The position numbers and the translations under genes were made by a program. Of a stretch of DNA of 64,000 bases, positions 3,428-64,000 are shown in pieces. Numbering within the stretch: position 1 is the stretch's first letter; every line of letters begins with the position of its first letter. The DNA comes from Escherichia phage vB_EcoM_005: sequence record MK295203. One strand, 5' to 3'. The notes below the pieces were generated by a model. The model was given only the letters and a program-made list of their open reading frames with translations, ran no database searches and had not been told where the DNA came from.

Positions 3428-3456
3428 TGTTTACAAGGTCTATAGGCATGATACTA
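3428..3456 (+). promoter_or_regulatory. T4-type early promoter (GTTTAC -35, 17-bp spacer, TACTAT -10) with inverted repeat ggtctatag/ctatagacc
   Basis: aaaagttGTTTACaaggtctataggcatgaTACTATagacctatcaa; A-rich upstream. Confidence 0.7.
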
Positions 3457-3494
3457 TAGACCTATCAAAACAAACTAACCAAACGGAAATCAAA

Positions 3495-3719
3495 ATGAAA
3501 ACTTATCAAGAATTTATTACCGAAGCTAAAAGACATGAAGATGAACTGCCAATTGTTACAAAAACCTTTGATGGCACACTGGCTGATTTTAAAAAAGTCC
3601 CTAGTGATAAGCTTGCTAAATTGACTGGCTCTATCAATGAAAAAGGTGGCAAGGTCACGTTTTCTGCTGGCGGCATAGCCAATCTTAAAAAACTTTTGAA
3701 AGCCGCTGGCGCTGAATAA
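3495..3719 (+). CDS. internal protein (IP)-like with capsid targeting sequence
   Basis: N-terminus MKTYQEFITEA matches the T4 IPI/IPII/IPIII capsid-targeting signal cleaved by the prohead protease; small basic protein. Confidence 0.7.
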   Translation: MKTYQEFITEAKRHEDELPIVTKTFDGTLADFKKVPSDKLAKLTGSINEKGGKVTFSAGGIANLKKLLKAAGAE

Positions 3720-3720
3720 A

Positions 3721-3993: not shown

Positions 3994-3995
3994 TT

Positions 3996-4025
3996 GTTTA
4001 CAACGGGCTCTAGTGGTGATACTAT
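3996..4025 (+). promoter_or_regulatory. T4-type early promoter
   Basis: GTTTACaacgggctctagtggtgaTACTATagccctatcaa; spacer and downstream repeats partly palindromic. Confidence 0.65.
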
Positions 4026-4061
4026 AGCCCTATCAAAACAAATGAGTGATTGGAGAATAAA

Positions 4062-4247
4062 ATGAAACGTTGCGAATTAATTAGAAATGTTACTGCACTG
4101 GCCGCCGTTACTGCTTTTGGCTTTAGTATGTTTGCAGGATTCATGCTCGATATGCTTTCAACTTCCGAGAATATAATCTCTTTAGTAGTGGCATTTTTAA
4201 TTGGTTCAATCTCTTTTGTTATGGATAAAATCTCTAAAGGTGAGTAA
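4062..4247 (+). CDS. small membrane protein, hypothetical
   Basis: SD ggaga then ATG; two hydrophobic segments. Confidence 0.5.
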   Translation: MKRCELIRNVTALAAVTAFGFSMFAGFMLDMLSTSENIISLVVAFLIGSISFVMDKISKGE

Positions 4248-5389: not shown

Positions 5390-5397
5390 TTAACTAC

Positions 5398-5472
5398 GTC
5401 CCGCTGGTGTAATGGATAGCATACGATCCTTCTAAGTTTGCGGTCCTGGTTCGATCCCAGGGCGGGATACCA
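5398..5472 (+). tRNA. tRNA-Arg (UCU)
   Basis: gtcccgctggtgtaatggatagc...ggttcgatcccagggcgggatacca: acceptor stem pairs, T-loop GGTTCGATCC, anticodon loop cuUCUaa, encoded CCA. Confidence 0.75.
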
Positions 5473-6852: not shown

Positions 6853-6880
6853 GGCCCTTCCGAAAGGTTGGGCCTTTTTT
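6853..6880 (+). terminator. rho-independent terminator (repeat of 5709-5737)
   Basis: ggcccttccgaaaggttgggcc + TTTTTT. Confidence 0.75.
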
Positions 6881-6903
6881 GTTTCTAAAAGTTTAAAAAA
6901 GAT

Positions 6904-6932
6904 GTTTACACCTCCTTTAAACATGATACTAT
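6904..6932 (+). promoter_or_regulatory. T4-type early promoter
   Basis: GTTTACacctcctttaaacatgaTACTATagacctatcaa. Confidence 0.7.
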
Positions 6933-6967
6933 AGACCTATCAAAACAACAGAGTGAAGGAGAGTAAA

Positions 6968-7231
6968 ATGGATAATTATGGTGAATTGTTTAATTTCTTT
7001 ATGAAATGCGTTCCGGAAGAATTTGGTGCTACCGTTAACGATATTAAGGTTATCGGTCCTGAACATCCGGTATATGAAACGTATGCTGTAATGGGTAATG
7101 AAGACGGACAATGGTATACAATTAAGGTTGTGGTTAATATGTTCTCAGCTGAAGGTTATGCTAAATCGTCTACCAAAGTTTATCATGATAACGATTTTGA
7201 TGCGGAAGATTATTTCAATAATATGAAATAA
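6968..7231 (+). CDS. hypothetical protein
   Basis: SD aggag then ATG; 87 aa. Confidence 0.5.
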   Translation: MDNYGELFNFFMKCVPEEFGATVNDIKVIGPEHPVYETYAVMGNEDGQWYTIKVVVNMFSAEGYAKSSTKVYHDNDFDAEDYFNNMK

Positions 7232-7235
7232 AAAT

Positions 7236-7265
7236 GTTTACAACCCTCAGAGGACAGGGTATAAT
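7236..7265 (+). promoter_or_regulatory. T4-type early promoter with hairpin spanning the -10
   Basis: GTTTACaaccctcagaggacagggTATAATgtcctc; inverted repeat gaggaca/tgtcctc flanks TATAAT. Confidence 0.65.
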
Positions 7266-7307
7266 GTCCTCATGGATTATAAATCTTAACCAACTGAAGG
7301 AAATACT

Positions 7308-7901
7308 ATGAACACTTTAAAGAAAATCGTTGAATTCATCCGTTCTAAACTGGGTACTGCAATGGCTCAGAACCTGTCAATCGAAGACCAATACACCAAA
7401 GCTGCTTCTACCCTGATTGATAAAATCACTGAACTCCAGACTGCTCATGTTAAGTCTGTGAATGAAGAAAAACGTATTCGTGCGTTGGCTAATGAAAAAG
7501 ACCAGCTCGCTGCTTCTAAAGAACGTGAAATTCGTAAACTGATTGCCGAAGGCGCTGATGTCCAGGTACATGCTAAACTTGGCCTCCTTTATCGTCGTAC
7601 AGCTACTCAGCTTCGTAAGAAAGCTGATGATTATATCGAAATGCGTAATGAAATTAAACTGAAGGTTAAGGAACTTGATGACTCTCGTCAGGAACTGGCT
7701 GTTAAGCTCGAGTACATCCGTGAAACTCGTAATATGGCTGCCCTTGGTATTGCTACTGCTGATGATGTTGTTGAAATTGCTGCACTGACCAAGATTGATA
7801 TCGAAGACACCCTGATGCGTGTAGAAACGTTTAAAGGCCCACAAGTTGGAATGGATACGACTTCTGCTGATATCGAAGACTACATTAATTCACTTAAGTA
7901 A
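7308..7901 (+). CDS. coiled-coil protein, possibly PspA/IM30-like
   Basis: 197 aa, heptad-rich, charged; weak resemblance to phage-shock protein A architecture. Confidence 0.45.
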
Positions 7902-12473: not shown

Positions 12474-12502
12474 GTTTACAAGGTCTATAGGTGTGATACT
12501 AT
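12474..12502 (+). promoter_or_regulatory. T4-type early promoter
   Basis: near-identical to the 3428 promoter: aaaagttGTTTACaaggtctataggtgtgaTACTATagacctatcaa. Confidence 0.7.
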
Positions 12503-12539
12503 AGACCTATCAAAACAACAGAGTGAAATGGAGAATAAA

Positions 12540-12752
12540 ATGAAACTTTCTAACCAAGCAATCAACATGTTAAACGAAGTTCGTGCAGCTGGTGCTAAAT
12601 GCCTGATGGTTGACACTCGTGATGGAGACCTTCGTCAAGCATTTGGTGAATTGAAATCTGCTGACCTGGTTAAATGTTCAGTTGGTATTGGTAACGCACT
12701 TCGTGTATCCTTATCTCCTAAAGGTAAAATGTACTTTTTCAACAAAAAGTAA
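12540..12752 (+). CDS. hypothetical protein
   Basis: SD ggaga then ATG; 70 aa. Confidence 0.5.
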   Translation: MKLSNQAINMLNEVRAAGAKCLMVDTRDGDLRQAFGELKSADLVKCSVGIGNALRVSLSPKGKMYFFNKK

Positions 12753-15430: not shown

Positions 15431-15459
15431 GTTTACATCTCCTAGAATTATGATAGTAT
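15431..15459 (+). promoter_or_regulatory. T4-type early promoter
   Basis: GTTTACatctcctagaattatgaTAGTATatc. Confidence 0.6.
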
Positions 15460-15512
15460 ATCTACAGTTACTTGAACAGACCAATTAAAATATTTACCTT
15501 TAAGGAACCAGT

Positions 15513-16109
15513 ATGAAAACGTATAAAGAATTTATCACCGAAGCTTCTGTAGGAAAGGTCCAAGGCATTAATAAAGATGAGTGGACTTACCGAGGAAACG
15601 GCGTTGACAAAATAGGAAACGGCTTTGACGCTAAAACAGCTCCTATTGAACGGTATTTAGCTACAAAGGCTTCCGATTTTAAAGCTTTCGCTTGGGAAGG
15701 ACTTCGCTGGCGTAACGACCTAAATATTGAAGCTGATGGGCTTAAATTTGGCCATATCCAAGATGTTGTTGCTAGTAACTTGGATGCAGCTTTTATTAAA
15801 GCCGACGGTGACCTTCGTCGCTGGAATTTAAAACTGTTCTCTAAACAGAAAGGTCCGGTATTTGTACCTAAAGCAGGTAAATGGACTATTGATAATAAAT
15901 TGGCTAAAGCGGTTAACTTCGCTGGTCTTGAATTTGCCAAGCACAAATCAGCATGGAAAGGTCTTGATACAATGGCTTTCCGTAAAGAATTTGCTGATGT
16001 TATGACTAAAGCCGGCTTTAAGGCAGAACTAGATACCTCTAAAGGTACGTTTAAAGACGCTAATATTCAGTACGCTTACGCCGTTGCTAATGCAGCCCGT
16101 GGTAATTAA
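15513..16109 (+). CDS. ipIII: internal protein III-like
   Basis: N-terminus MKTYKEFITEAS; 198 aa (T4 IPIII about 194 aa); located between e and denV as in T4. Confidence 0.7.
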   Translation: MKTYKEFITEASVGKVQGINKDEWTYRGNGVDKIGNGFDAKTAPIERYLATKASDFKAFAWEGLRWRNDLNIEADGLKFGHIQDVVASNLDAAFIKADGDLRRWNLKLFSKQKGPVFVPKAGKWTIDNKLAKAVNFAGLEFAKHKSAWKGLDTMAFRKEFADVMTKAGFKAELDTSKGTFKDANIQYAYAVANAARGN

Positions 16110-16137
16110 TAAAGCGATTTACCTTTAAAGGAAACAT

Positions 16138-16440: not shown

Positions 16441-16442
16441 CA

Positions 16443-16471
16443 GTTTACTTTTACAATAGCTGTGATATAGT
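16443..16471 (+). promoter_or_regulatory. T4-type early promoter
   Basis: GTTTACttttacaatagctgtgaTATAGT. Confidence 0.55.
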
Positions 16472-16500
16472 GTTCTCACACAAACATGGAGAACACTAAA

Positions 16501-16917
16501 ATGACTCGTATCAACCTTACCTTAGTATCTGAATTGGCTGACCAACACTTAATGGCTGAATATCGCGAATTACCACGTGTTTTCGGTGCAGTTCGTAAGC
16601 ATGTTGCTAATGGTAAACGTGTTCGTGATTTTAAAATTAGCTCTACTTTTATCCTTGGTACAGGCCATGTTACATTCTTTTACGATAAGCTTGAGTTCTT
16701 ACGTAAACGCCAAATCGAGCTTATAGCCGAATGTTTAAAACGTGGTTTTAATATCAAGGACACTACGGTCCAGGACATTAGTGATATTCCTCAGGAATTC
16801 CGTGGTGACTATACTCCACACGAAGCTTCTATTGCTATATCTCAGGCCCGTTTGGACGAAAAAATTGCACAACGCCCTACCTGGTACAAACATTATGGTA
16901 AGGCTATTTACGCTTAA
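16501..16917 (+). CDS. denV: endonuclease V, pyrimidine-dimer DNA glycosylase
   Basis: [41 protein letters not shown]... essentially identical to recalled T4 endo V over 138 aa. Confidence 0.95.
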
Positions 16918-16959
16918 TTAAATCCGTGATAGAATACTTCTATCAACTTAAGGAATAAT

Positions 16960-17259
16960 ATGAAAACTTATCAAGAATTTATTACAGAAGCCAAAGCTCC
17001 TAAAGCATTTCAAATTGGGGTTCAAGGCAATTTAGACCAAGAATATGTTGATGCTATTGTAGCAAGCCTCGGTAAACAGGGTGTACAAGTGGATTTGGTT
17101 GATTTTACCAAAGGTAATACTTTTAATATTGTTACGTCTAAAGGCTCTTTAGCTAAAGTTAAAAAGGCTTTTGGTGTAGCACAAGCCTACGAAATCGACC
17201 ACTCTGAATTAGAAAATAAAGGTCGCCAGAACACAATTAAAGGTTCTGGTTCTTTCTAA
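16960..17259 (+). CDS. internal protein (IP)-like with capsid targeting sequence
   Basis: N-terminus MKTYQEFITEAKAP; 99 aa; an extra IP relative to T4 at this locus. Confidence 0.6.
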   Translation: MKTYQEFITEAKAPKAFQIGVQGNLDQEYVDAIVASLGKQGVQVDLVDFTKGNTFNIVTSKGSLAKVKKAFGVAQAYEIDHSELENKGRQNTIKGSGSF

Positions 17260-18753: not shown

Positions 18754-18782
18754 GTTTACATCTCCTGTAGACGTGATACTAT
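18754..18782 (+). promoter_or_regulatory. T4-type early promoter with inverted repeat (18761-18770 / 18794-18803)
   Basis: GTTTACatctcctgtagacgtgaTACTATaaacctatcaactacaggaga. Confidence 0.7.
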
Positions 18783-18810
18783 AAACCTATCAACTACAGG
18801 AGATTACAAA

Positions 18811-19269
18811 ATGTCAGAAATTAATTCAGAAGTATTCATCCGCCGCAACAAATTACGTCGTCAGTTCGAAACCGAATTCCGTGAACTGAATGCGTCCATC
18901 AAAAAAGCCGCCATTAAGAGCGGAGTCCCAGCCTTCTTTATTAAGTACTCTAATCACTTGTTGGACCGTGCTATCCAACGTGAAATCGACGAAAAATACG
19001 TTTTTGCTTTATTCAAGCAACTCCATAACCATGTTAAAGAAATCCACGAATTCTTAATCCAGGAACCTCTGCCTGATGTAGAATCCGAAATTGTCCCTGG
19101 TAAAGTGTATCGTCCATTGCGTCTCGAAATTACCGATAAAACCTTATGGCTAGGTATGACAGTAGACCGTAAACATCCTGATAAAGGATATTCCCTTAAA
19201 TGCCGTATGGCATTTGTTAACTCTAAACGTTTAGAAGGTAAAACCAGCACGAAAGTAATCTATCTTTAA
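18811..19269 (+). CDS. regB: endoribonuclease RegB
   Basis: SEVFIRRNKLRRQFETEFRE...HLLDRAIQREIDE.YVF...YRP.RLEITD..LWLG...LKCRMA matches recalled T4 RegB. Confidence 0.9.
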   Translation: MSEINSEVFIRRNKLRRQFETEFRELNASIKKAAIKSGVPAFFIKYSNHLLDRAIQREIDEKYVFALFKQLHNHVKEIHEFLIQEPLPDVESEIVPGKVYRPLRLEITDKTLWLGMTVDRKHPDKGYSLKCRMAFVNSKRLEGKTSTKVIYL

Positions 19270-22438: not shown

Positions 22439-22467
22439 AAAGGTCCCACTTCGGTGGGACCTTTTTC
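22439..22467 (+). terminator. rho-independent terminator
   Basis: aaaggtcccacttcggtgggacc + TTTTT. Confidence 0.8.
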
Positions 22468-22475
22468 GTTTAGGT

Positions 22476-22504
22476 GTTTACATCCTCTAGGAACATGATA
22501 CTAT
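22476..22504 (+). promoter_or_regulatory. T4-type early promoter
   Basis: GTTTACatcctctaggaacatgaTACTATagacctatcaa. Confidence 0.7.
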
Positions 22505-22532
22505 AGACCTATCAACTAATGAGGAGAACAGT

Positions 22533-22769
22533 ATGAAACTTACAAGTACTACGGTTTCATTAGAATATGAAATCAACGGTCGTATCCTTGAGATTAAGAT
22601 ATTCGACGACCGAAGTATCTTCGCTGATTATCGAGGATACAGAATTCGTCTAGAAAAGGACGAGCTCAAGGAACCGTGGCTCCTTAAAGACACATTAAAG
22701 GGTTGTGGGTGTAAACTGAACACCACCCAGGCCCAAGAATTAATTTCTACCATCAACAAATACTGGTGA
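22533..22769 (+). CDS. hypothetical protein
   Basis: SD gaggag; 78 aa. Confidence 0.5.
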   Translation: MKLTSTTVSLEYEINGRILEIKIFDDRSIFADYRGYRIRLEKDELKEPWLLKDTLKGCGCKLNTTQAQELISTINKYW

Positions 22770-25116: not shown

Positions 25117-25139
25117 AAAAGGCCTTCGGGCCTTTTTTG
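25117..25139 (+). terminator. rho-independent terminator
   Basis: aaaggccttcgggcc + TTTTTT. Confidence 0.8.
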
Positions 25140-25157
25140 GGTTTAGTGCAAAAAAGA

Positions 25158-25186
25158 GTTTACACCCTCGTAGAGCATGTTATTAT
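25158..25186 (+). promoter_or_regulatory. T4-type early promoter
   Basis: GTTTACaccctcgtagagcatgtTATTAT. Confidence 0.6.
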
Positions 25187-25223
25187 GGACCTATCAAATC
25201 TACTGAGTGAAATGGAGAATATA

Positions 25224-26204
25224 ATGTTAACTATCAAAATCAACAAAGGTATCTATCGCGGTAATGAAATCTCTGGTACGTTCATGAGTTCAGGTAAAAC
25301 CTGGTTCCCTAATAAAATTCATGAATCCGAAGCTCACCTCGGTGACGGCAAGGTATTCGTACAGATTGATGGTGTTGAACGTGGTGTATGGGTGTTCAAA
25401 TGTGACGTTGAAACGGAAGGTGCTGAAGCTCCTGTAGTGGTTACTGAATCCGCTGAAGAAATGAAGCATCGCATCAACAAACGTTTTAAAGTAATGAACA
25501 TGATGACTAACGGAATCATCGATGGTAAAATTCGTTCCCTTATCATCTCTGGTGCCGCAGGTATTGGTAAAACGTATTCTTTGGATAAAGCATTACAAAA
25601 TGCCCACGAAAATGAAACTATCGAATATAAATCAATCAACGGAAAGATTAGTGGAATCGGTCTTTACGAGCAGCTTTGGAATAACCGCGGCCCTAATAGT
25701 GTTCTTCTTATCGATGATGTTGATGTATTCTCTGATATGGATATCCTGAACCTGTTAAAAGCAGCATTGGATACCGGTGAAAAACGTAAGGTGTGCTGGA
25801 GCACTTCAAGTTCTTACCTCGATGATAAAAATATCGATAAAGAATTCGAATACGAAGGCACCATCGTGTTCATCACCAACGTTGATATTGACCGTGAATT
25901 AGAGCGTGGAACTAAACTTGCTCCACACCTCCAGGCTTTAGTATCTCGTTCAGTTTACTTAGACCTCGGAGTTCACTCGAACGAAGAGATTATGGTTCGT
26001 GTTGAAGACGTTATCCTGTCCACTGATATGATGCAAAATCGAGGTCTGACTGATGCTGAGACTTATCAAGCTTTAGCATGGATGAAGGCTAATGTATCTC
26101 GTCTTCGTAACGTATCATTACGTACAGCTCTTTATCTGGCAGACTTCATTGCCACCGATAAAAATGACTGGAACGAAATCGCTGAAGTTACACTTCTGAA
26201 ATAA
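25224..26204 (+). CDS. P-loop ATPase (AAA-like)
   Basis: Walker A GAAGIGKT, Walker B VLLIDDVD; 326 aa. Confidence 0.6.
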   Translation: MLTIKINKGIYRGNEISGTFMSSGKTWFPNKIHESEAHLGDGKVFVQIDGVERGVWVFKCDVETEGAEAPVVVTESAEEMKHRINKRFKVMNMMTNGIIDGKIRSLIISGAAGIGKTYSLDKALQNAHENETIEYKSINGKISGIGLYEQLWNNRGPNSVLLIDDVDVFSDMDILNLLKAALDTGEKRKVCWSTSSSYLDDKNIDKEFEYEGTIVFITNVDIDRELERGTKLAPHLQALVSRSVYLDLGVHSNEEIMVRVEDVILSTDMMQNRGLTDAETYQALAWMKANVSRLRNVSLRTALYLADFIATDKNDWNEIAEVTLLK

Positions 26205-26214
26205 AGGTGAAATT

Positions 26215-26556
26215 ATGTTCGAACAATTTAGTTACGACCTTATAAAAGCAGAGTTGAAGTACTCTAATGCCATGAAACAGTCCGTCGAGGACTATGATAA
26301 TGAATTTAAATACAAATTCGCCGAGAAGGTTTATAAAACTGATTGTGAAGAAGGAGACTATAAGAGACTGGCCTTGGCAGCTAAGACTCAGGCCTTAATA
26401 AATCTAGACCGCAAACAGGTAAAGTTGGCAGGCGACTTCCGAGGTGAACTCTGCGCCATCAGGAATGAATACCTTATTCGTATTAAACACCAACGGAAAG
26501 AGAACACCCAATCTGCGTGGTTTAGTGGACAATCAGGTGAAAAAAGTTTCTATTAG
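26215..26556 (+). CDS. hypothetical protein
   Basis: 113 aa. Confidence 0.5.
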   Translation: MFEQFSYDLIKAELKYSNAMKQSVEDYDNEFKYKFAEKVYKTDCEEGDYKRLALAAKTQALINLDRKQVKLAGDFRGELCAIRNEYLIRIKHQRKENTQSAWFSGQSGEKSFY

Positions 26557-26558
26557 TT

Positions 26559-26587
26559 GTTTACATCTCCAGTAGAAATGATACTAT
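26559..26587 (+). promoter_or_regulatory. T4-type early promoter with inverted repeat (ctccagtag / ctactggag)
   Basis: GTTTACatctccagtagaaatgaTACTATagacctatcaactactggagg. Confidence 0.7.
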
Positions 26588-26613
26588 AGACCTATCAACT
26601 ACTGGAGGTTATC

Positions 26614-27039
26614 ATGAACGCTAAAGATATTTTTTCACTGATTAATTTCAACAACGGTAATTTCAAATCTGAAAAACAAAGCAAGTTCTTTAACGACGTT
26701 GCTTGTGGTAATGAGATTACCGTATCTGGAGGAGAGATTTACAAAAGCCGTTGGAACTGGATTGTTATCATCGATTCAGTTGGTATTGTAGAGCTCTATA
26801 AAAATACTAACAAAAAACGTACTCTTCACTGGAGTCGTGAAACCAATCAATCTTATCAAGCTGAACGTAACAAACGTTTAATGCCTACTGAATCTGACCT
26901 GGCAAATGTTAAATCTGATATCGCTTATTTCGATAATCTGATTGCCGAGGAACAAGCGGTTATTGATAAGTTTGACGAAATCAAAGCTTGTAAAGAGATT
27001 CCTGAATTCATGGAGCGTTTAAAGACGGTTCTCGCATAA
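26614..27039 (+). CDS. hypothetical protein
   Basis: 141 aa. Confidence 0.5.
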   Translation: MNAKDIFSLINFNNGNFKSEKQSKFFNDVACGNEITVSGGEIYKSRWNWIVIIDSVGIVELYKNTNKKRTLHWSRETNQSYQAERNKRLMPTESDLANVKSDIAYFDNLIAEEQAVIDKFDEIKACKEIPEFMERLKTVLA

Positions 27040-28950: not shown

Positions 28951-28980
28951 GTTTACATCCAAGGATGGATGGAGTATAAT
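28951..28980 (+). promoter_or_regulatory. T4-type early promoter
   Basis: GTTTACatccaaggatggatggagTATAAT. Confidence 0.6.
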
Positions 28981-29008
28981 CCTTTTATCAACTACTGAGG
29001 AGAATATC

Positions 29009-29920
29009 ATGACTCGTACTGAATACATCAATGCCTTTACTACGTATATCACTGCTGCCACCCCTCCATTAACCCCATACGAGGTAATAGTTTCTAATAT
29101 CAATAAATGGGTAGACCAAATTGATGAAGCACTATCTGGTTGTTTCAAAGATGAAATCGAAAAGATTGCGAGTCGTTTGTTTATTTCTGATATCACGGAA
29201 ACTTTTAAAGGTTCTCGTTTGCTTTCACGCCTGGTCAATAAGGACATCCTTTCAGAGTTTGGCAAAGAGAAACATCCAGGTTCCAGCCATGTTGTTAGCT
29301 ATCAATGGTTTGGTGACGTTTTAAAAAGCTATGTCAAAATTAAAGGTGCCGATCCTAGTGGCCTATTTCCACAACGTTGGGCTGGTGAATTTAAGGCTAA
29401 CTCCGCATTAATTCTAAAAGCAGCAACCAAAACCTTTGTAAAGGGTGATTGTCGTACTATCCACCCTATGGCTAATTGCATGATTAAAACAAACAGCTAT
29501 AAAGGGAAGGTACTTATTTCTATTATTTGGTCGCCTAGTCGGAAACCTAAAGAAGTTGAAGTTTCGAAATACCACGATATTTCCTACAATACCCTGAATA
29601 TGGTAGAACAGGCTTTAGCTTTGATGGATACAGTAGAGAAATATGAGATTCAAGAAATCAAACACCACTTAGGCTGGAAAGGATATGAAGTTTTAGTAAC
29701 AGTTCGCGAAATCAAATGCCCTGTTCCAAAAACCGACGCTGAAATTTATCAAGAAAAATGTGAGGAAATTGTGAACACTGATAAAGAGCCTGCAACCTTA
29801 GAAGACCTGATTGATGAGCTGAATAGCCCGAGGCTATTGGCCTGTGCACAAATTACTAAATCCAAGTTACCAGAAGTCGTTGCGGACCGTCTTGAACAGG
29901 CTCTGGAGCTGCTGAAATGA
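29009..29920 (+). CDS. hypothetical protein
   Basis: 303 aa from ATG after actgaggag SD. Confidence 0.5.
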   Translation: MTRTEYINAFTTYITAATPPLTPYEVIVSNINKWVDQIDEALSGCFKDEIEKIASRLFISDITETFKGSRLLSRLVNKDILSEFGKEKHPGSSHVVSYQWFGDVLKSYVKIKGADPSGLFPQRWAGEFKANSALILKAATKTFVKGDCRTIHPMANCMIKTNSYKGKVLISIIWSPSRKPKEVEVSKYHDISYNTLNMVEQALALMDTVEKYEIQEIKHHLGWKGYEVLVTVREIKCPVPKTDAEIYQEKCEEIVNTDKEPATLEDLIDELNSPRLLACAQITKSKLPEVVADRLEQALELLK

Positions 29921-30901: not shown

Positions 30902-31257
30902 AGGCCGTCTGATTGAACATTCGCTTTATGAACTTTCGGATTCAGGTTCTTTACCTGACCTAGAATCCGATTTGATTAAAGCTGCTGCTGACTATATCCA
31001 TTGGCTTGAAGCTCAACTTCGCTTTGCTGATAAGGCGTTCTGATGAAAACTAAATTAGTCTATACCGAAAAGTTGGATGGCAGTAAGGTCTGGAAACTTC
31101 TTATCAAAGGAAGTCCTACCGACCAGTTTATGGCCACCTGTGTAGGATTGTATACTCGCCCTACCAAAAAGATGATTCGTCAATTTAAACGGTTGCATCG
31201 TTCGTTCTATAATGTTTAATAAATACCTATATCTAATTATTATTAAAGGTATAGGTC

Positions 31258-32232
31258 ATGCAAGATTTCGGACATTGGGCGGTATTTGAAGAAACCGATA
31301 TTAAAAACCATATTGGATTTGTATACGTAATCACTTTTGAAGATGGCAAAAAATATGTAGGTGCTAAAAAGATTTGGAAACGAATTAAAGCTGCACCTTG
31401 CACATTTAAACGCGGCCCTAAAAAAGGATTTGAAGAATCTGATTGGAAAACCTATACCTCATCATCTAATGAACTAAACGCAATGATAGAAAAGGGTATA
31501 AGTCCTAAAGAGTACCTTATTGTAGGATGGTATCCTACTTGGGGTAAAACTCTTATGGCAGAAATGGAAATGCAATTAGCCAATGATGTTTTACGAGACC
31601 CTATGTGGCTTAACAAGCAAATTGGCGGACATTTCAACCCTAACTGCTTTGACGATTTAACCGCTGACGAAGTTGGCAAGTATATTAAATCTGGGTGGCA
31701 ATTTGGTCGTTCTAAAACAGAAAAACATTCTGTTACCTATAATTGCTCTAAATTTACTATATGGGACTATCAAGAAAATAAAGCAGTGGAAGTTCTAAAT
31801 CAAAATGAGTTTGCTCGTAATAATGATTTAAGTAGCAACCATCTAACTAGACTACTTCAAGGAACTCTCGACCTTATTAAAGATCGCTGGGGACTTCCAC
31901 CAGATATTGCTCGTCAGCGTTATAAATTTCAGGACGTTTCTTCAGGAACAAAATTTTTATCTAATTCTGAGTTAGAAGAATTTTACGGTATGACTCGCGG
32001 TCAGGCTAACAAAGCCGTTAAAGATGGAAGAGCCGTTAAATTGGTAGTCGAAAGCAAAGAAGACCACATTAAAAAACTTGGCTCTATCGAATTGGTAAAA
32101 ACCGAAAAGACAAAAGTTACGTCTCAAGTAATGCTTAACAGTTTTAAAGATATAGTTAATCCTATGACCACTGCCGAAAAATCAGAAATGATTGAATGGT
32201 TGGAAAGTTATATAACTTATTTGAAATCTTAA
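31258..32232 (+). CDS. GIY-YIG homing endonuclease-like protein
   Basis: N-terminal GFVYVITFEDGKKYVGAKK (GIY...YIG pattern) with downstream conserved R/E/N; 324 aa. Confidence 0.6.
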   Translation: MQDFGHWAVFEETDIKNHIGFVYVITFEDGKKYVGAKKIWKRIKAAPCTFKRGPKKGFEESDWKTYTSSSNELNAMIEKGISPKEYLIVGWYPTWGKTLMAEMEMQLANDVLRDPMWLNKQIGGHFNPNCFDDLTADEVGKYIKSGWQFGRSKTEKHSVTYNCSKFTIWDYQENKAVEVLNQNEFARNNDLSSNHLTRLLQGTLDLIKDRWGLPPDIARQRYKFQDVSSGTKFLSNSELEEFYGMTRGQANKAVKDGRAVKLVVESKEDHIKKLGSIELVKTEKTKVTSQVMLNSFKDIVNPMTTAEKSEMIEWLESYITYLKS

Positions 32233-33085: not shown

Positions 33086-33114
33086 GTTTACTTCCTCTCC
33101 TCACGTGTTATAGT
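33086..33114 (+). promoter_or_regulatory. T4-type early promoter with 13-nt inverted repeat (tctcctcacgtgt / acacatgaggaga)
   Basis: GTTTACttcctctcctcacgtgtTATAGTctatcctatcaacacatgaggaga. Confidence 0.65.
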
Positions 33115-33143
33115 CTATCCTATCAACACATGAGGAGAACATT

Positions 33144-33320
33144 ATGACTATCCAAGATAAAGAAATTAAAGTCAACCAGTATTATTCAATCAACGGCAAA
33201 GCTGTTCTAGTAACTGAAATATCTAGCCTGGATGTGTGGTATACCATAATTGACCTTAATATTAAAATGATTTGTGACCGTGGTGTATTTTGTTCGATAG
33301 CTAAGGAAATCAAATTATGA
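33144..33320 (+). CDS. hypothetical small protein
   Basis: 58-aa ORF after SD gaggag (below track threshold). Confidence 0.35.
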   Translation: MTIQDKEIKVNQYYSINGKAVLVTEISSLDVWYTIIDLNIKMICDRGVFCSIAKEIKL

Positions 33321-34006: not shown

Positions 34007-34207
34007 ATGAATCCTGAATCTAAATTATCACAGCGAATTGCTGAAGCTCGTCGTCAGTTCTTTGAAAATATGATGGCTCAAGGTATTGATGACGAAGTTT
34101 TTCTGAACTGGTTTTGGAATCACAAATATTCAGCTTGTTCAGGCGCTTTGTTAATTTCCGCAGCAATGATGTATGAAGGCTGGAAAGGTGCTAAAGCACA
34201 AAAATAG
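34007..34207 (+). CDS. hypothetical protein
   Basis: 66 aa. Confidence 0.4.
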   Translation: MNPESKLSQRIAEARRQFFENMMAQGIDDEVFLNWFWNHKYSACSGALLISAAMMYEGWKGAKAQK

Positions 34208-34236
34208 TTTACAAACTCTTGGGACCAGAGTATAAT
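34207..34236 (+). promoter_or_regulatory. T4-type early promoter with hairpin around -10
   Basis: GTTTACaaactcttgggaccagagTATAATggtcc; ggacca/tggtcc inverted repeat. Confidence 0.6.
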
Positions 34237-34275
34237 GGTCCTACGGATTATAACTTTAAAACTGAGGAAATTATT

Positions 34276-34605
34276 ATGTCACAAGCTATTAAAAACGTAC
34301 TGAACTCTTTCGCTTTCGATAAAGTAAACGAACTGATGAAAACTGGTTTTGTAACTCCTCAGGTTCTTGACCAATGGGTTGCTGAACTGTTACCAATCAT
34401 GCACTCTAAAGACCAGAAAATTGGTAAGAATGGTATTCGTGAAATCCTGGTTCAATATATCCTTGATGAATTCGATGTCGCAGCCTTTGGTGTCGAATCT
34501 AAAGCTTGGGCCCCTGGTGAAATCTCTGATAAAACTATCCGTCGTATGAAGAACCAGCGTAAGAAAAAATTCGTTGACCTTAAAATTGTTAAGGCGGCGA
34601 AATGA
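34276..34605 (+). CDS. hypothetical protein
   Basis: 109 aa; leader shared with 27103 gene. Confidence 0.5.
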   Translation: MSQAIKNVLNSFAFDKVNELMKTGFVTPQVLDQWVAELLPIMHSKDQKIGKNGIREILVQYILDEFDVAAFGVESKAWAPGEISDKTIRRMKNQRKKKFVDLKIVKAAK

Positions 34606-36463: not shown

Positions 36464-36684
36464 TAACATGGACAGGTGGCTAATGAAAGACGAATACGAA
36501 AAAGTTTAAGAGGTTGTATGAATGACGAATTCGATGGATTTTGATAAGATTAAATCTGACAAAAACGAGATGATTCTTCAATTTGAAGCCGCTCGTATTA
36601 AAGCAGAAAACGAAGGTACTATTACATATAAGCCTATCAAGTTCAGGTCTTCTCATGAACCTCTGTATGGTGTATTAGTTGGTA

Positions 36685-36707
36685 AAGGAGCTTAGGCTCC
36701 TTTTTTG
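36685..36707 (+). terminator. rho-independent terminator
   Basis: aaaggagcttaggctcc + TTTTTT. Confidence 0.75.
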
Positions 36708-46814: not shown

Positions 46815-46843
46815 GTTTACATACCACATGGAACGTGGTAGTA
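46815..46843 (+). promoter_or_regulatory. T4-type early promoter
   Basis: GTTTACataccacatggaacgtggTAGTATccttcctatcaa. Confidence 0.6.
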
Positions 46844-46875
46844 TCCTTCCTATCAACTACTTAGAGGAAATTACA

Positions 46876-47112
46876 ATGGAAGCTTTAATCGTTAGTGCTG
46901 GTGTTTTAGGATTCGGTTCTCTGGCTATTATGTTCATTGGTTACTTTTTACCATGGATTTTAGCTCTTCTGCGAGGCACTCGTAGTAATGTAGGAATTTT
47001 CTTCCTTAATCTCCTGTTAGGTTGGACGATGATTGGTTGGGTAGTGGCTTTAATCTGGGCTATCGCTGCTGAACGTAAATCAAATGCACAAATCATTATT
47101 GTTAAACAGTAA
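46876..47112 (+). CDS. imm: Imm-like small membrane protein (superinfection immunity family)
   Basis: 78 aa, two TM helices (LIVSAGVLGFGSLAIMFIGYFLPWILALL / GIFFLNLLLGWTMIGWVVALIWAI); directly after gene 43 as T4 imm. Confidence 0.55.
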   Translation: MEALIVSAGVLGFGSLAIMFIGYFLPWILALLRGTRSNVGIFFLNLLLGWTMIGWVVALIWAIAAERKSNAQIIIVKQ

Positions 47113-53455: not shown

Positions 53456-54881
53456 AAACTATTTTGGCTCAACTGCTAGGCAATAGTGATTATTTCACTA
53501 AGGTCTGGCCTTATATGAATGATTCTTATTTTGACCAGGGTCCTGCAAAGACCCTTTTCAAAGAAATTAAAAAACACGTCAATGAATATAATGCAGTGCC
53601 TTCTAAGAACGCATTGAGCATTGCATTAGATAACAGTACGCTTTCAGAAGTTGAACATCAGGGCGCTAAAGAGCTTTTAAGTTCACTGAATGCCGGACCT
53701 GAAGACCAAGAATGGTTGGTTAAAGAGACGGAGAAATACGTTCAGAAAGCAGCGATGTATAATGCAACTTCAAAAATCATTGAAATCCAAACTAATGCCG
53801 ACCTTCCGGTTGAGCAACAAAATAGAAAACTTCCAGGTATTGGTGCTATTCCTGGATATCATGCGTGATGCATTATCGATTTGTTTCGATTCTGAATTAG
53901 GTCATGACTGGATGGATGACTATGAAGAACGATTCAAAAGTTATTCCGATAAAGCACGTAAGGTTCCGTTCCGTCTTAATATTCTGAATAAGATTACCAA
54001 GGGTGGTGCCGAGTTTGGTTACTGAAAACGTATTGTTGGCAGGAACAAACGTAGGTAAGTCTCTTGGCCTGTGTTCATTGGCTGCTGATTACCTTCAATC
54101 AGGTTACGATGTTCTTTATATCTCCATGGAGATGGCAGAGGAAGTATGTGCTAAGCGTATAGATGCCAACCTTCTGGATGTATCGCTGGATGATATCGAT
54201 GATGGTCATGTCTCTTGGCCTGAATATAAAGCTAAGATGGATAAATGGCGTTCAACTGCTACCTTAGGTCGTTTAAAGATTAAACAGTATCCTACTGGTG
54301 GTGCTAATGCCGATACCTTCCGTGCATTATTAAACGAATACAAGCTCAAACAAAACTTTGTGCCGCAGGTCGTTATCGTCGACTACTTGGCCATTTGTGC
54401 ATCGTCTCGTACTAAAGTTTTCTCTGAAAACAGTTACGGATTGATTAAGATGGTAGCCGAAGAACTACGTGGACTGGCAGTAGAGAAGAAATTATTGTTG
54501 TGGACAGCAGCCCAGACTACTCGTGGTGCGAACGTTGCGGCCGAAATCGATATGGCTGATATTGCTGAATCATTTGGTATTGCACATACTGCAGACTTCA
54601 TGTTAGGTGTGGTCGAGACAGAAGAGTTTGCTCAGATGGGTATGCAAATGGTTAAGCAGCTTAAATCTCGTTACGGCGATAAGAGCTACTACAACAAATT
54701 TAAGATTGGCGTTAAGAAAGGAAACCAACGTTGGTATGAAGTTGAAGACGATTCCAACCCAGGCCCGGTGAACACTGTTCGTGAGGCTACAGGTGAGATG
54801 AATCGTCAAGCCGAGGTCAATCGTCAGACGCGTGTTAATAGAAGTGATTTAGACGATTTAGCAGCATCTATCAAATTTTAA
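53440..54881 (+). pseudogene. 41: replicative helicase gp41 (DnaB-like), split across three frames by two +1 shifts
   Basis: segments 53440-53868, 53870-54025 and 54003-54881 each align with consecutive parts of recalled T4 gp41 (..GAIP|DIMR.. and ..GGAE|TG.. junctions); Walker A GTNVGKS in third segment. Confidence 0.85.
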
Positions 54882-54902
54882 GGAGCTTCGGCTCCTTTTT
54901 TG
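54881..54902 (+). terminator. rho-independent terminator
   Basis: aggagcttcggctcct + TTTTT. Confidence 0.8.
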
Positions 54903-54910
54903 TTTTAAGG

Positions 54911-54939
54911 GTTTACATCTCCTATAGGCATGATACTAT
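54911..54939 (+). promoter_or_regulatory. T4-type early promoter
   Basis: GTTTACatctcctataggcatgaTACTATagacctatcaa. Confidence 0.7.
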
Positions 54940-54963
54940 AGACCTATCAACTTGGAGAACAAA

Positions 54964-55281
54964 ATGAAAACCATCGATTGCAAAGCAGAACATAAAGTGT
55001 ATTACCATGGAAGTTGTAGTGTTGCTAATATCGGTAATATGCTTTGTCCTCCTGAGGAAACAGGAGTTCTGTCTGAAACCGGTCGTAAGAAAAACCTAAA
55101 TCGTGTGTTCTTTACTGAAGATATCGGTTTGGCTAAGATTTATGCAGGACGCGCAGCTCGTTCAGTGGGAGGAGAACCTCGTCTTTATCGTGTAATTGCT
55201 CCGGTAGATGTGGTTTGTTTAAATGATACTAAAGGCGCCACAGTTTATCATGCTGAATGGGCCTTCTGTGAGGAAATCTAA
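54964..55281 (+). CDS. hypothetical protein
   Basis: 105 aa, SD ggaga. Confidence 0.5.
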   Translation: MKTIDCKAEHKVYYHGSCSVANIGNMLCPPEETGVLSETGRKKNLNRVFFTEDIGLAKIYAGRAARSVGGEPRLYRVIAPVDVVCLNDTKGATVYHAEWAFCEEI

Positions 55282-55858: not shown

Positions 55859-55888
55859 GTTTACAACGGTCTATGGTAGTGATACTAT
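55859..55888 (+). promoter_or_regulatory. T4-type early promoter
   Basis: GTTTACaacggtctatggtagtgaTACTATagacctatcaa. Confidence 0.7.
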
Positions 55889-55916
55889 AGACCTATCAAC
55901 TAACGAGGAGTTAAAA

Positions 55917-56210
55917 ATGAAAAAGTTATTAATCGCAGCAATCCTTACAGTAGCATCATGTGGCACGGCTCCAGTAACTGCCGGATTGGATAAAGACCTT
56001 TGTGAATGGTCTATGACTGCAGACCAAGAATCGGTTGAACATCAGATTTATGCCGATATCATGAACATCACTAAACGCGACCGCCCTGATATGGCTAAAG
56101 AAGTGTCAGACCAATTAGCTTCAGGTGGTGTTATGCAATATAACTATGTTTTGTATTGCGATGCCAATTTCGATAACAAAAATATCGTTAAAGAGGTGAC
56201 AGATGAATAA
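55917..56210 (+). CDS. sp: Spackle (Sp) periplasmic protein, superinfection exclusion
   Basis: 97 aa, signal peptide ending ASCG; DKDLCEWSMTADQ...IMNI.KRDRP.M...SGGVMQYNYVLYCD.NF.NKNI matches recalled T4 Sp. Confidence 0.75.
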   Translation: MKKLLIAAILTVASCGTAPVTAGLDKDLCEWSMTADQESVEHQIYADIMNITKRDRPDMAKEVSDQLASGGVMQYNYVLYCDANFDNKNIVKEVTDE

Positions 56211-61693: not shown

Positions 61694-61720
61694 TAAGGAA
61701 CCTTCGGGTTCCTTTTTTTG
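61694..61720 (+). terminator. rho-independent terminator
   Basis: aaggaaccttcgggttcctt + TTTTTTT. Confidence 0.8.
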
Positions 61721-61729
61721 GTTTTAAGG

Positions 61730-61759
61730 GTTTACTTTTTAGGAAGGTTGTGTTAAGAT
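61730..61759 (+). promoter_or_regulatory. T4-type early promoter (weaker -10 TAAGAT)
   Basis: GTTTACtttttaggaaggttgtgtTAAGAT. Confidence 0.45.
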
Positions 61760-61785
61760 GGTATTATCTTATAGAGGAGAACACT

Positions 61786-61995
61786 ATGTTAAATCGTTGG
61801 ATTAAACCAAATAAAACTTTGGATGAAATTATCGCTAATCATGTATTGAAAAAGTACTTTTATACTCCTTGGTATACCGAAGTTATTGTCCATTCATTTA
61901 TGATGCATGAAGACGGTTCTATCGAATTTAATGCCGAAATCCGTCACGAGACTGATGATATTGATAAGGTTGAATTTAAACGAGGTTTCTTATGA
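61786..61995 (+). CDS. hypothetical protein
   Basis: 69 aa from ATG after gaggaga SD. Confidence 0.45.
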   Translation: MLNRWIKPNKTLDEIIANHVLKKYFYTPWYTEVIVHSFMMHEDGSIEFNAEIRHETDDIDKVEFKRGFL

Positions 61996-63254: not shown

Positions 63255-63283
63255 TTTTACACCTCCTCCCTTCATGTTATAAT
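63255..63283 (+). promoter_or_regulatory. T4-type early promoter with inverted repeat (acctcc / ggaggt)
   Basis: TTTTACacctcctcccttcatgtTATAATgacctctaaatcactggaggt. Confidence 0.6.
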
Positions 63284-63307
63284 GACCTCTAAATCACTGG
63301 AGGTCAT

Positions 63308-63877
63308 ATGAACATCGAACAAAAATGTCTTTATCAAGACCGAATCAATTCCAAATTCTCAAAACACGAACAGAATCTTTTAGAAAAATGTCTGGATGCT
63401 AAAAAGGACCCTAACTTCCATTACGACCTTGATAAGCTAGTTCGTAAGCATGTTACTTCAGCGGTTCCGGTAGAGCTTTATCGTGGGATTACCCCTATGG
63501 AACTTGAGCAACTTGAAGTTCTTTCTGTTGGGTGTCAGTGGTCTCCTGGCCGGGTTACTTCTTTTAGTACACAATACTCTCAGGCTCGTCAGTTCGCAGG
63601 GGCATGGGAATATGGAACCAGAACCATTTTAAGTCTCAGGAATGCTCCATTCATTTTTGACTACTATAACCATGCTATCGACCTTGTTCTTGCAGGGAAT
63701 GTGGATGAGCTTGAAATAGATGAAACCCGTATCGACCTCTACGATATGGTAGAAACTGAATGTGAGTTCATGGTCTCTAGCCTATCACGATTTGAGATTG
63801 TTGAAATCGAAACCATCAAAAGAGACCCGTACGAAATCGAGTACAAAACAATTCATTTAAAAATGTTGAATTTTTAG
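63308..63877 (+). CDS. ADP-ribosyltransferase, ModA/ModB-like (R-S-E class)
   Basis: candidate catalytic triad elements LYRG (Arg), SFSTQ (Ser-x-Ser) and ETECEF (E-x-E); 189 aa; located after soc as mod genes in T4. Confidence 0.55.
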   Translation: MNIEQKCLYQDRINSKFSKHEQNLLEKCLDAKKDPNFHYDLDKLVRKHVTSAVPVELYRGITPMELEQLEVLSVGCQWSPGRVTSFSTQYSQARQFAGAWEYGTRTILSLRNAPFIFDYYNHAIDLVLAGNVDELEIDETRIDLYDMVETECEFMVSSLSRFEIVEIETIKRDPYEIEYKTIHLKMLNF

Positions 63878-63906
63878 TTTACAGGCAAGGAAGCTTGTGG
63901 TACTAT
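63877..63906 (+). promoter_or_regulatory. T4-type early promoter
   Basis: GTTTACaggcaaggaagcttgtggTACTATctttctatcaa. Confidence 0.6.
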
Positions 63907-63931
63907 CTTTCTATCAACTGAGGAGAATAAT

Positions 63932-64000
63932 ATGTTATATCCAAGCCATAAATTAGCAGAATTTATCAACAACGCCAAATGCGACGATTTCCGTGAGAAT
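63932..64000 (+). CDS. start of next gene (partial, runs off window)
   Basis: SD gaggag then ATG; 23 codons visible. Confidence 0.4.
   Translation, partial: MLYPSHKLAEFINNAKCDDFREN

Follow-up and report, generated by a model that had tools for sequence, protein, structure and literature searches.

Early-promoter cassettes with embedded inverted repeats in Escherichia phage vB_EcoM_005: candidate insulating hairpins, a subclass of which is predicted to mask the Shine-Dalgarno sequence

The definition of a promoter early stem-loop (PeSL) combines an AT-rich region, an early promoter of the sigma70 type, a stem-loop that lies within this promoter or overlaps it, and, at the 3' end, a Shine-Dalgarno (SD) sequence with ATG (Arbiol et al. 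2010, PMC2839356). PeSLs have been described in RB49 and phi1 (PMC2839356) and in the pairs PST/T4 and nt-1/KVP40 (Comeau et al. 2014, PMC4122927), and in the commonest types the stem lies between the promoter boxes or overlaps the -10 (PMC2839356). A second known arrangement is that of the T4 genes e, soc, 49 and I-TevI, where hairpins that mask the ribosome-binding site have a promoter inside them (Uzan and Miller 2010, PMC3014915). Here we describe 21 early-promoter cassettes in a 64,000-nt stretch of Escherichia phage vB_EcoM_005 (sequence record MK295203; “the window” is this whole stretch), among them the cassette at 26559, which precedes a homologue of nrdC.8 and carries an inverted repeat between its promoter spacer and its SD. 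Our reading, to which we assign a probability of roughly 0.6, is that the cassettes are sigma70 early-promoter units of the PeSL type, in which the embedded hairpin insulates the gene from upstream transcription. Cassettes are referred to below by their first coordinate, and all positions are collected in Table 1.

The window is approximately 90-93% identical to Escherichia phages AnYang, C6, IME08, WG01 and QL01, which belong to the genus Dhakavirus of JS98-type T4-like myoviruses, and vB_EcoM_005 is by its sequence a T4-like phage of the same JS98/IME08 type. A preliminary description of this DNA had counted about 20 sites with a shared promoter pattern, and this count holds: the strict pattern GTTTAC-N16-19-TAYWAT has 16 matches (0.30 expected; 0/100 shuffles), all on the + strand, on which the early and middle genes are encoded. 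A relaxed scan, in which one mismatch was allowed in the -35, any TAnnnT was taken as a -10 and an intergenic position was required, gives 21 co-oriented sites. The order of elements is an AT-rich upstream segment, GTTTAC, 17-18 nt, TAnnAT, usually YYTATCAA, and then the SD and ATG. The AT fraction in the 22 nt 5' of the -35 is 0.73 for the 21 sites (background 0.61 +/- 0.10), an SD-preceded ATG lies 24-53 nt 3' of the -10 at every site, and the features of the T4 early promoter (Pe), i.e., UP element, -35 GTTTAC, TGn and -10 consensus, are all found in the cassettes. A -10 followed in register by YYTATCAA occurs 12 times (0.02 expected), and CCTATCAA alone occurs 14 times in the window (2.2 expected). 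The downstream motif “cctatcaa”, which had been presented as part of the pattern, is found at about 12-15 of the 21 sites and is not a feature of every site. By its sequence, then, each cassette appears to be a self-contained unit of AT-rich UP region, GTTTAC, TGn plus -10, ATCAA start region, short unstructured leader and SD.

A 5-bp inverted repeat is part of the consensus itself: TGATA (extended -10, 26579-26583) and TATCA (start region, 26593-26597) recur at the same positions in other cassettes and pair as an inner stem when folding of read-through RNA is predicted. TATCAA is kept where TGATA is absent, and so these two segments do not co-vary. Twenty of the 21 cassettes lie within the tRNA-e-ip-regB-tk-nrdC-49-55 and dmd-61-soc-mod regions, and the blocks at 34.3-46.8 kb and 46.9-54.9 kb (47-46-45-44-62-regA-43; uvsX-40-41) are free of them. 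The flanked genes, earlier characterized as mostly small accessory open reading frames (ORFs), are not only small ORFans, since they include regB, denV, modA, modB, imm, sp, soc and nrdC.4/.8/.10.

The inverted repeats that had been pointed out at 26567/26599, 18761/18794, 33092/33126, 7249/7266 and 34222/34238 are all present in the sequence. At 26559, the repeat 26567-26575/26599-26607 extends to 11 bp (26565-26575/26599-26609). In folding predictions, RNA that reads through from upstream (26540-26640) has an energy of -28.1 kcal/mol (z score, z=-4.65) with both the SD and the AUG buried, while the cassette’s own predicted transcript (26594-26640) has an energy of -2.8 kcal/mol (z=+0.66). 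The predicted probability that the SD is unpaired falls from 0.47 to 0.01 when the upstream RNA is included, and is 0.36 when the spacer of this longer RNA is shuffled.

Such pairing is specific to the individual site. Within the window, duplexes between a spacer and its own downstream region have a mean energy of -10.1 kcal/mol, compared with -7.7 +/- 0.5 for swapped pairs (0/20000 permutations, p<5e-5). An exact-pattern scan of IMG/VR yields 129 unique cassettes from approximately 20 T4-type genomes, or 60 cassettes after clustering, and among these 60 the matched pairs again win, both for the arm on the 3' part of the -10 plus discriminator (z=-9.3) and for the SD arm (z=-3.8). When 20 window cassettes are folded singly, the mean z is -2.3, with 11 at z<=-2 and seven at z<=-3.4. 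Chance or base composition as the source of the repeats is ruled out by the shuffles and the arm-swap permutations, and the inverted repeats are a real but non-uniform feature of the cassettes.

At 16443 and 63255 the 5' arm is found between the -10 and the predicted start; elsewhere it lies in the promoter spacer. The 3' arm falls on the 3' half of the -10 and the discriminator at 3429, 12474, 3996, 55859, 7236 and 34207, and on the SD at 26559, 18754, 33086, 16443 and 63255, with weaker examples of the latter at 6904, 22476 and 54911; at 6904 the -35 is a pairing partner as well. Of the 129 unique cassettes, 47 place the 3' arm on the SD and 39 within -10..+12, and 38 cassettes are weak. In all of these classes the full hairpin is located wholly or partly 5' of the predicted start (the A of ATCAA, approximately 7 nt past the -10), and so it is expected to form only on RNA begun further upstream. 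Where the 3' arm is the SD, the SD would consequently be hidden on read-through RNA only.

The arms differ in sequence from cassette to cassette, and they differ together. In a subfamily picked solely for its downstream geometry (17-nt spacer, caaNNNNNGGAG), a matching anti-SD arm is present in each of the 17 unique members, and the stem occurs in the versions TGTAG/CTACA, AGTAG/CTACT, ATTAG/CTAAT and TCATG/CATGA. In the alignment of this subfamily, 98.2% of the cells are paired, both sides are changed in five of the 11 pairs, 0/500 shuffles reach the score, and slid registers score approximately 0. The -10 stems co-vary too (GGTCT/AGACC, GGGCT/AGCCC, GGGTA/TACCC, GATGAT/ATCATC and GGTAGGACTA/TAGTCCTACC), and the E33 ortholog of the sp cassette has a different stem, GGGATAAT/ATTATCCC. 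The mismatches inside stems comprise 15 G·T and no A·C (p=6e-5, strand-symmetric scoring). Taken as sequence evidence, this points to stems that are selected structures of the sense strand and not the products of chance.

These observations also bear on a reading in which a dimeric phage regulator uses the repeats as operators, or in which the repeats tune or shut off the promoter through DNA structure (e.g., by supercoil-dependent extrusion at the -10). Many of the repeats are indeed centered on the -10, and the mechanism by which early promoters are shut off is unknown (PMC2988021). With arms that vary freely while their complementarity is kept, however, there is no common recognition sequence, and the loop lengths (3 to 23 nt), the wobble asymmetry and the dependence on upstream terminators described below likewise speak against an operator or tuning element, which we regard as very improbable.

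The pairing of spacer with SD can be followed into other genera at two genes. The early promoter of T4 regB, a typical one of its kind (PMC3014915), has a spacer UUUUCCUCUUGAC that pairs with GUUAAGAGGAGAA, SD included (leader -24.3 kcal/mol, z=-3.07). Among regB loci from IMG/VR with 59-100% protein identity, an SD-covering stem is found in five of six lineages, T4 included, and the remaining lineage has a stem around the -10 only. In the four such lineages besides T4, the 5' arm that follows the -35 is ATCTCCTGTAG, TTTCTCCTCTTTAT (paired with ATAAAGAGGAGAAA), TTTCCTT (with AAGGAGA) or TCTCC (with GGAGA and an inner stem). The T4 nrdC.8 promoter, which is the ortholog of the site at 26559, pairs GUUCCUCUGU with ACGGAGGAAC. 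The T4 RefSeq annotation is without promoter features, and mapped T4 starts are therefore not transferable. The comparison suggests that the masking design is kept at regB and nrdC.8 across genera and that its sequence is not.

A third T4 early promoter, that of ipII (~65.8 kb), carries a stem of 14 perfect base pairs (TCCTAGAATTGTGA/TCACAATTCTAGGA) whose loop contains the -10. The window cassette at 15431 keeps an ipII-like 5' arm (CTCCTAGAATTATGA, 15431-15459) and has lost the 3' arm (z=+2.1); its stem appears to be decayed.

On the longer transcript, pairing of the SD is predicted at seven of the 21 sites (6904, 16443, 18754, 22476, 26559, 33086 and 54911). Spacer-dependent drops in SD accessibility like that at 26559 are seen at 18754, 22476, 33086 and 54911, whereas at 16443 the drop comes about through the arm next to the -10; the decrease at 63255 is smaller (from 0.65 to 0.41). 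With long 5' context, the loss of SD accessibility is 0.19 for cassette genes versus 0.10 for 69 ordinary genes (p=0.04). We conclude from these models that SD masking would be limited to a subclass, roughly a third of the cassettes, and would not hold for the whole family.

The SD itself is often a probable target of RegB, whose consensus is GG*AGRAYARAA (PMC3014915) with GGAGRAYA as its core. An SD of the form GGAGRAYA precedes 10 of the 21 cassette genes and one of the 107 other genes (p=1.6e-8), and promoter, leader and RegB-sensitive SD thus appear to form one unit per cassette. RegB requires its GGAG to be single-stranded, and structure readily inhibits the enzyme (Durand et al. 2006, PMC1702504), so that SDs masked on read-through RNA would escape RegB too. 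GGAG is also present inside the canonical terminator stems at 54880-54897 (AAGGAGCUUCGGCUCCUU) and 36684-36703 (AAAGGAGCUUAGGCUCCUUU), and these fall in the class of structured, RegB-resistant GGAG (Durand 2006, PMC1702504); no GTTTAC promoter follows the terminator at 36684.

The five terminator-promoter pairs that had been cited are likewise present. Four of the hairpins, at 22439-22464, 25117-25136, 54880-54897 and 61695-61714, are canonical, with UUCG loops and T-runs, and that at 6853-6875 is imperfect. If a cassette is counted as terminator-preceded when a canonical terminator lies within 80 nt upstream, the embedded stems of the window have a mean z of -0.47 behind a terminator (n=4) and of -2.80 without one (n=16; p=0.03). 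The IMG/VR representatives behave in the same way (-6.6 kcal/mol, n=10, versus -12.8 kcal/mol, n=50; p=5e-4), and over all unique cassettes the relation between terminator and embedded-stem strength has p=6.5e-9. Stems are thus strong where there is no terminator and weak behind one, which suggests that the embedded stem deals with transcripts from upstream. Neither a promoter-tuning element nor a signal for DNA recombination would be expected to show such a complementary distribution.

This distribution is predicted equally well if the embedded stems are attenuators or terminators for upstream transcripts, as has been proposed for the PeSLs of RB49 and phi1, and so halt RNA polymerase instead of hiding the SD. 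Put in front of lacZ, one RB49 stem is reported to have cut expression as much as rrnB T1 did (Arbiol 2010, PMC2839356), and the stems that cover the -10 or -35 leave the SD untouched. However, the embedded stems have no U-run, being followed by UAUCAAAACAA or by the coding region, which argues against intrinsic termination; moreover, they are AT-rich, with 6-11 bp and loops of 8-23 nt. The combination of GC-rich stem and U-run, which marks an intrinsic terminator, is found in the hairpins at 6853, 22439, 25117, 54880 and 61695 and not in the embedded stems. Where termination is evidently wanted, this phage has textbook GC-rich UUCG hairpins with T-runs. Nor does termination explain the exact register of the 3' arm on the SD, which is kept in T4 regB and nrdC.8 with different sequences. 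On balance we consider attenuation a rather unlikely account of the stems.

The preliminary description had likened the cassettes to the PeSLs for which a role in module shuffling has been proposed. The PeSL-type anatomy and a number of cassette junctions agree with this, but an enrichment of breakpoints does not appear: relative to IME08, C6 and E33, 11 of 43 indel or replacement events touch a cassette, and 10.6 are expected for random gene junctions (P=0.51; the ~100-nt missing blocks described below were left out). Five junctions are clearly cassette-mediated, by cassette-to-cassette or SD-repeat recombination. At 7236, all three relatives have an extra cassette and ORF flanked by direct repeats atgaaataa..GTTTACA (tandem cassettes), and IME08 has an extra ORF at 22476 with repeated SD segments on either side. 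E33 has another module in place of that between cassettes 3429 and 3996; it also lacks the stretch that begins at the -10 of 15431 and ends at the SD of 16443, and a different cassette precedes its denV. The cassettes can therefore be crossover points, but a special role in shuffling is without statistical support in the window.

One IMG/VR cassette joins the spacer arm CTCCATTAG, the usual partner of which is CTAATGGAG, to the SD arm CTACTGGAG, with one mismatch left. It is apparently a recombinant of two cassette families with the crossover between spacer and SD.

Junctions inside cassettes (7236, 22476, 3429-3996 and 15431-16443), such a mixed cassette from another phage, and the mini-circles between PeSLs that were demonstrated in RB49 and phi1 (PMC2839356) would all be in keeping with stems that act on DNA, as recombination signals or fragile sites (hairpin or cruciform, possibly with a phage nuclease or recombinase) that drive the shuffling. 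Against such a role stand the unenriched breakpoints, and also the 60-90 bp of shared cassette sequence, which suffice for crossovers and make the stems unnecessary. In addition, tolerance of G·T with absence of A·C is unexpected for a duplex or cruciform, arms 23 nt apart are poor cruciform substrates, and the tie between stem strength and upstream terminator is not predicted. We judge a DNA signal to be improbable.

In the reading that we prefer, that of an insulating hairpin, the embedded inverted repeat would be a selected hairpin of the sense strand with its 5' arm always 5' of the predicted cassette start. It would fold only on early or middle transcripts that were begun upstream and read through, and its job would be to insulate the gene from this upstream transcription. 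For about one third of the cassettes (among them nrdC.8, regB, denV, modB and the ORF at 33086) the 3' arm is the SD, so that read-through RNA would be closed to ribosomes and presumably to RegB, and RNA from the cassette’s own promoter would have its SD free. For the remaining cassettes, with the stem over the -10 or -35, the candidates are an attenuator and a 3'-end or processing structure. The 60-90 bp cassette repeats may occasionally serve as homologous crossover points for the gain, loss and exchange of modules. The data that carry this reading are the motif excess, the site-specific complementarity, the covariation, the wobble asymmetry, the predicted loss of SD accessibility, the conservation at two T4 genes and the complementary distribution with terminators. 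We infer the start position, the existence and amount of read-through RNA, and the effect on translation or RegB cleavage.

Several points weigh against this reading. Nine of the 20 folded cassettes have no significant structure, and no specific RNA-level function can be assigned to the -10/-35 stems. The excess of cassette genes with a drop of at least 0.3 in the unpaired probability of the SD is marginal (7/21 versus 8/69 others, p=0.04), and shuffling of the spacers across all 21 sites leaves SD accessibility unchanged (p=0.54), which rules out SD masking as a general cassette property. The complementary distribution, as noted, fits RNA masking and attenuation equally. The wobble count is the sole strand-specific evidence, and eight of its 15 G·T cases are one motif (ATGGT/ACTAT), so that the independent events are nearer 8-10; whole-region folding energies of sense and antisense strands differ by a mean of -0.13 kcal (p=0.9), like random segments. 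The cassettes are paralogous and mobile, so sample sizes overstate their independence. Finally, the position of the 5' arm upstream of the start holds if initiation occurs approximately 7 nt past the -10, as is usual, the starts here being predicted ones.

Two further possibilities are thought unlikely. Translational coupling, in which an upstream-terminating ribosome opens the stem, fits poorly with 5' arms that begin 9-12 nt past the upstream stop, which would be the edge of the ribosome footprint. An RNase III site is disfavored because the stems are only 6-11 bp.

A more far-reaching proposal, which we put forward tentatively and with rather more doubt than confidence, is that many T4-type early-promoter spacers double as anti-SD sequences. 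The SD, often a RegB site, would be exposed only on RNA from its own promoter and hidden from ribosomes and RegB on read-through RNA, so that translation and inactivation by RegB would both depend on the promoter of origin. If this is true, regB, nrdC.8 and denV would be confined to the immediate-early burst, a translational layer would be added to the early-to-middle switch of T4-type phages, and there would be a cis-encoded reason for the destruction by RegB of early but not later transcripts with the same GGAG. It would give a simple account of the confinement of regB and possibly of RegB’s discrimination between transcripts. The cassettes also mark early transcription units, which could aid the annotation of the hundreds of Tevenvirinae genomes used in phage therapy, and as compact self-insulating expression modules they are of possible use in phage engineering.

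Table 1. Cassettes and terminators of the window, with the parts of the cassette at 26559 listed separately. Stem energies are given as z scores; “SD unpaired” is the predicted probability without and with upstream RNA.
Feature	Position	Strand	Details
26559 cassette: AT-rich UP-like region	26537..26558	+	Upstream ORF stop codon ends at 26556
26559 cassette: -35 hexamer GTTTAC, T4 early-promoter type	26559..26564	+	
26559 cassette: 5' arm AUCUCCAGUAG (anti-SD) within promoter spacer	26565..26575	+	Co-varies with 3' arm in other phages
26559 cassette: -10 TACTAT, TGa before it (extended -10)	26582..26587	+	
26559 cassette: conserved CCTATCAA	26591..26598	+	Predicted start is A at ~26594, from 7-nt spacing
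26559 cassette: 3' arm CUACUGGAGGU, includes SD GGAGG (26603-26607)	26599..26609	+	nrdC.8 homologue ATG at 26614
regB cassette	18754..18813	+	11-bp stem 18760-70 ATCTCCTGTAG / 18794-804 CTACAGGAGAT over SD; z=-5.33; SD unpaired 0.58 to 0.20
Cassette before 58-aa ORF	33086..33146	+	Stem CUCCUCAcGUGU / ACACaUGAGGAG (33096-103/33131-138) over SD; z=-4.79; SD unpaired 0.59 to 0.16
denV cassette	16443..16503	+	10-bp stem 16468-77 / 16489-98 over SD; z=-4.88; SD unpaired 0.64 to 0.03
modB cassette, -35 TTTTAC	63255..63310	+	10-bp stem 63282-91 / 63298-307 over SD and AU of AUG; z=-3.40
Cassette before orf35-like gene upstream of dmd	54911..54966	+	Weak stems CTATAG/CTATAG, UCUCC/GGAGA; terminator before
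Cassette before orf92-like gene	22476..22535	+	Weak anti-SD UCCUC/GAGGA; terminator before
e.8 cassette	6904..6970	+	CUCCUUUA / UGAAGGAG (SD); ATGTTTA / TAAACAT stem over -35; terminator before
Cassette	3429..3497	+	10-bp stem AGGTCTATAG / CTATAGACCT across -10, SD uninvolved; z=-5.14
Cassette	12474..12542	+	Same 10-bp stem over -10 as 3429; z=-5.34
trna.4 cassette	3996..4064	+	GGGCTCTAG / CTATAGCCC, compensatory relative to GGTCT/AGACC; z=-2.63
sp (spackle) cassette	55859..55919	+	11-bp stem GGTCTATGGTA / TACTATAGACC, one G·U; z=-3.56
e.6 cassette	7236..7310	+	GAGGACA / TGTCCTC (7250-56/7265-71) either side of -10 TATAAT
55.2 cassette	34207..34278	+	TGGGACCA / TGGTCCTA (34220-27/36-43) either side of -10 TATAAT; z=-2.38
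ipIII-like cassette	15431..15515	+	5' arm like T4 ipII promoter, without 3' partner (degenerate); z=+2.10
Cassette, -35 ATTTAC, before internal-head-protein-like ORF	16906..16962	+	TGATAGAA / TTCTATCA around -10
nrdC.10 cassette	25158..25226	+	Weak stem; terminator before
nrdC.4 cassette	28951..29011	+	AAGGAT / ATCCTT around -10
imm cassette, immediately 3' of gene 43	46815..46878	+	z=-2.02
Promoter-like site before soc	61730..61788	+	-10 TAAGAT, poorest match; terminator before
modA cassette	63877..63934	+	
Terminator-like imperfect hairpin GGCCCttcc-gaaa-ggttGGGCC + T7	6853..6882	+	dG -16; 22 nt 5' of 6904 -35
Intrinsic terminator, 11-bp stem, UUCG loop, T-run	22439..22470	+	12 nt 5' of -35
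Intrinsic terminator, 8-bp stem, UUCG loop, T-run	25117..25142	+	22 nt 5' of -35
Intrinsic terminator AAGGAGCUUCGGCUCCUU + T-run	54880..54903	+	14 nt 5' of -35
Intrinsic terminator, 8-bp stem, UUCG loop, T7	61695..61721	+	16 nt 5' of -35

Compared with the annotated IME08, the left part of the window contains genes 4/2/3/1/57 followed by the tRNA, e, ip, denV, regB, vs, tk, nrdC, 49 and 55 regions, and the right part contains 47-46-45-44-62-regA-43, imm, uvsX-40-41, dmd, 61, 56, soc and mrh, ending at modB/modA. Two tRNAs (5316-5469; 55.6 and 48.8 bits) are the only Rfam matches in the window; IME08 annotates three tRNAs for this region, which is rearranged relative to the relatives. At about 20 positions, clean blocks of 99-103 nt of genuine and mostly coding sequence are missing from the window and present in IME08, C6 and E33, with flanks that align perfectly (11520, 13142, 15049, 19927, 22138, 23752, 23869, 24613, 27012, 28541, 29883, 30452, 32919, 39397, 39875, 44016, 46586, 51604 and 62809). 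These gaps break reading frames, one of them within gene 43 and another within nrdC.11, and they do not look like biology: as an apparent artefact, stretches seem to have been removed or masked in the source record or when it was prepared.

Some ORFs of the window differ from those of the relatives. The gene 44 (clamp-loader) ORF at 41632-43068 has an N-terminal extension of approximately 160 aa, from 482 nt that are absent in IME08, C6 and E33; the extension has no Pfam match and could, from its sequence, be a small inserted gene read in frame or a true fusion. Four ORFs at 57247-57777, 60514-61311, 11818-12468 and 36736-37491 (176, 265, 216 and 251 aa, respectively) are absent or replaced in the three compared relatives and have zero Pfam matches. 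The only one of these that adjoins a cassette is 11818-12468, the right boundary of which is 10 nt 5' of the -35 at 12474. The ORF at 31258-32232 is a SegE-like GIY-YIG homing endonuclease (Pfam PF19835, E=8e-34); IME08 and C6 have a different segment in its place. A weak promoter-like GTTTAA-N18-TATTAT (31214-31260) lies 5' of this ORF, with a spacer ACCTATA that is complementary to TATAGGT just before the ATG.

Of the known systems, the PeSLs are closest, and the window cassettes appear to be PeSLs by sequence definition. They share the AT-rich region, the early promoter, the stem between or overlapping the boxes, and the SD and ATG; they occur in many copies, apparently for the most part in variable regions, and some indel junctions lie inside them. 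The PST/T4 PeSL consensus TTTACW-N17-TAYWAT (PMC4122927) matches the -35 and -10 of the window. They differ from described PeSLs in belonging to the JS98-type lineage, which has only a passing mention in the 2010 paper (PMC2839356), in having AT-rich and variable stems that are not of the GGGG...CCCC type, and in the lack of breakpoint enrichment found here. They differ further in that a large subclass (with 26559, 18754 and 33086 among its members) pairs the spacer with the SD, an arrangement that none of the five PeSL subclasses has. Until now, PeSLs have been treated as hot spots of recombination, their stems being read as terminators and recombination sites without discussion of translation. 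The spacer-to-SD stems of this subclass are probably better explained by SD masking on read-through RNA than by a recombination or terminator element.

In the hairpins of T4 e, soc, 49 and I-TevI, the SD and/or AUG is held in a helix on RNA started upstream, and the transcript of the internal promoter lacks the 5' arm and can be translated; the folding models predict the same for this subclass. The T4 genes use late promoters (TATAAATA), which delay expression, whereas the promoters in the window are of the early sigma70 type, with the promoter spacer as 5' arm. Expression here is predicted to be confined to the first minutes and not, as in T4, postponed. The SD-masking cassettes would thus work like the e/soc/49/I-TevI set without being members of it, since their internal promoters are early ones. 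T4 reviews that deal with prereplicative transcription and with control after transcription (including PMC3014915 and PMC2988021) mention no inverted repeats in early-promoter spacers, a statement that does not extend to the comparative regB literature, where the regB stem may be described, and no Rfam family is found at the cassettes at the gathering threshold.

The cassettes are also like RegB targets (PMC1702504), given the GGAGRAYA form of so many of their SDs, and regB itself stands behind a cassette. RegB sites have been defined on single-stranded RNA, and what is new here is an anti-SD arm in cis that is predicted to remove the site on longer transcripts. Five cassettes, which follow a GC-rich hairpin and T-run at 12-22 nt, resemble Rho-independent terminator-promoter junctions, but in the window terminators and embedded stems are distinct elements with an inverse relation to each other. 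Elements of the PeSL kind are thus already known, in a lineage other than this one, which has had no earlier detailed description. What the present comparison adds is the reading of the stems as selected sense-strand structures that insulate each early gene as an alternative to a terminator, together with a conserved subclass, including the site at 26559 and regB, in which the stem is predicted to hide the SD.

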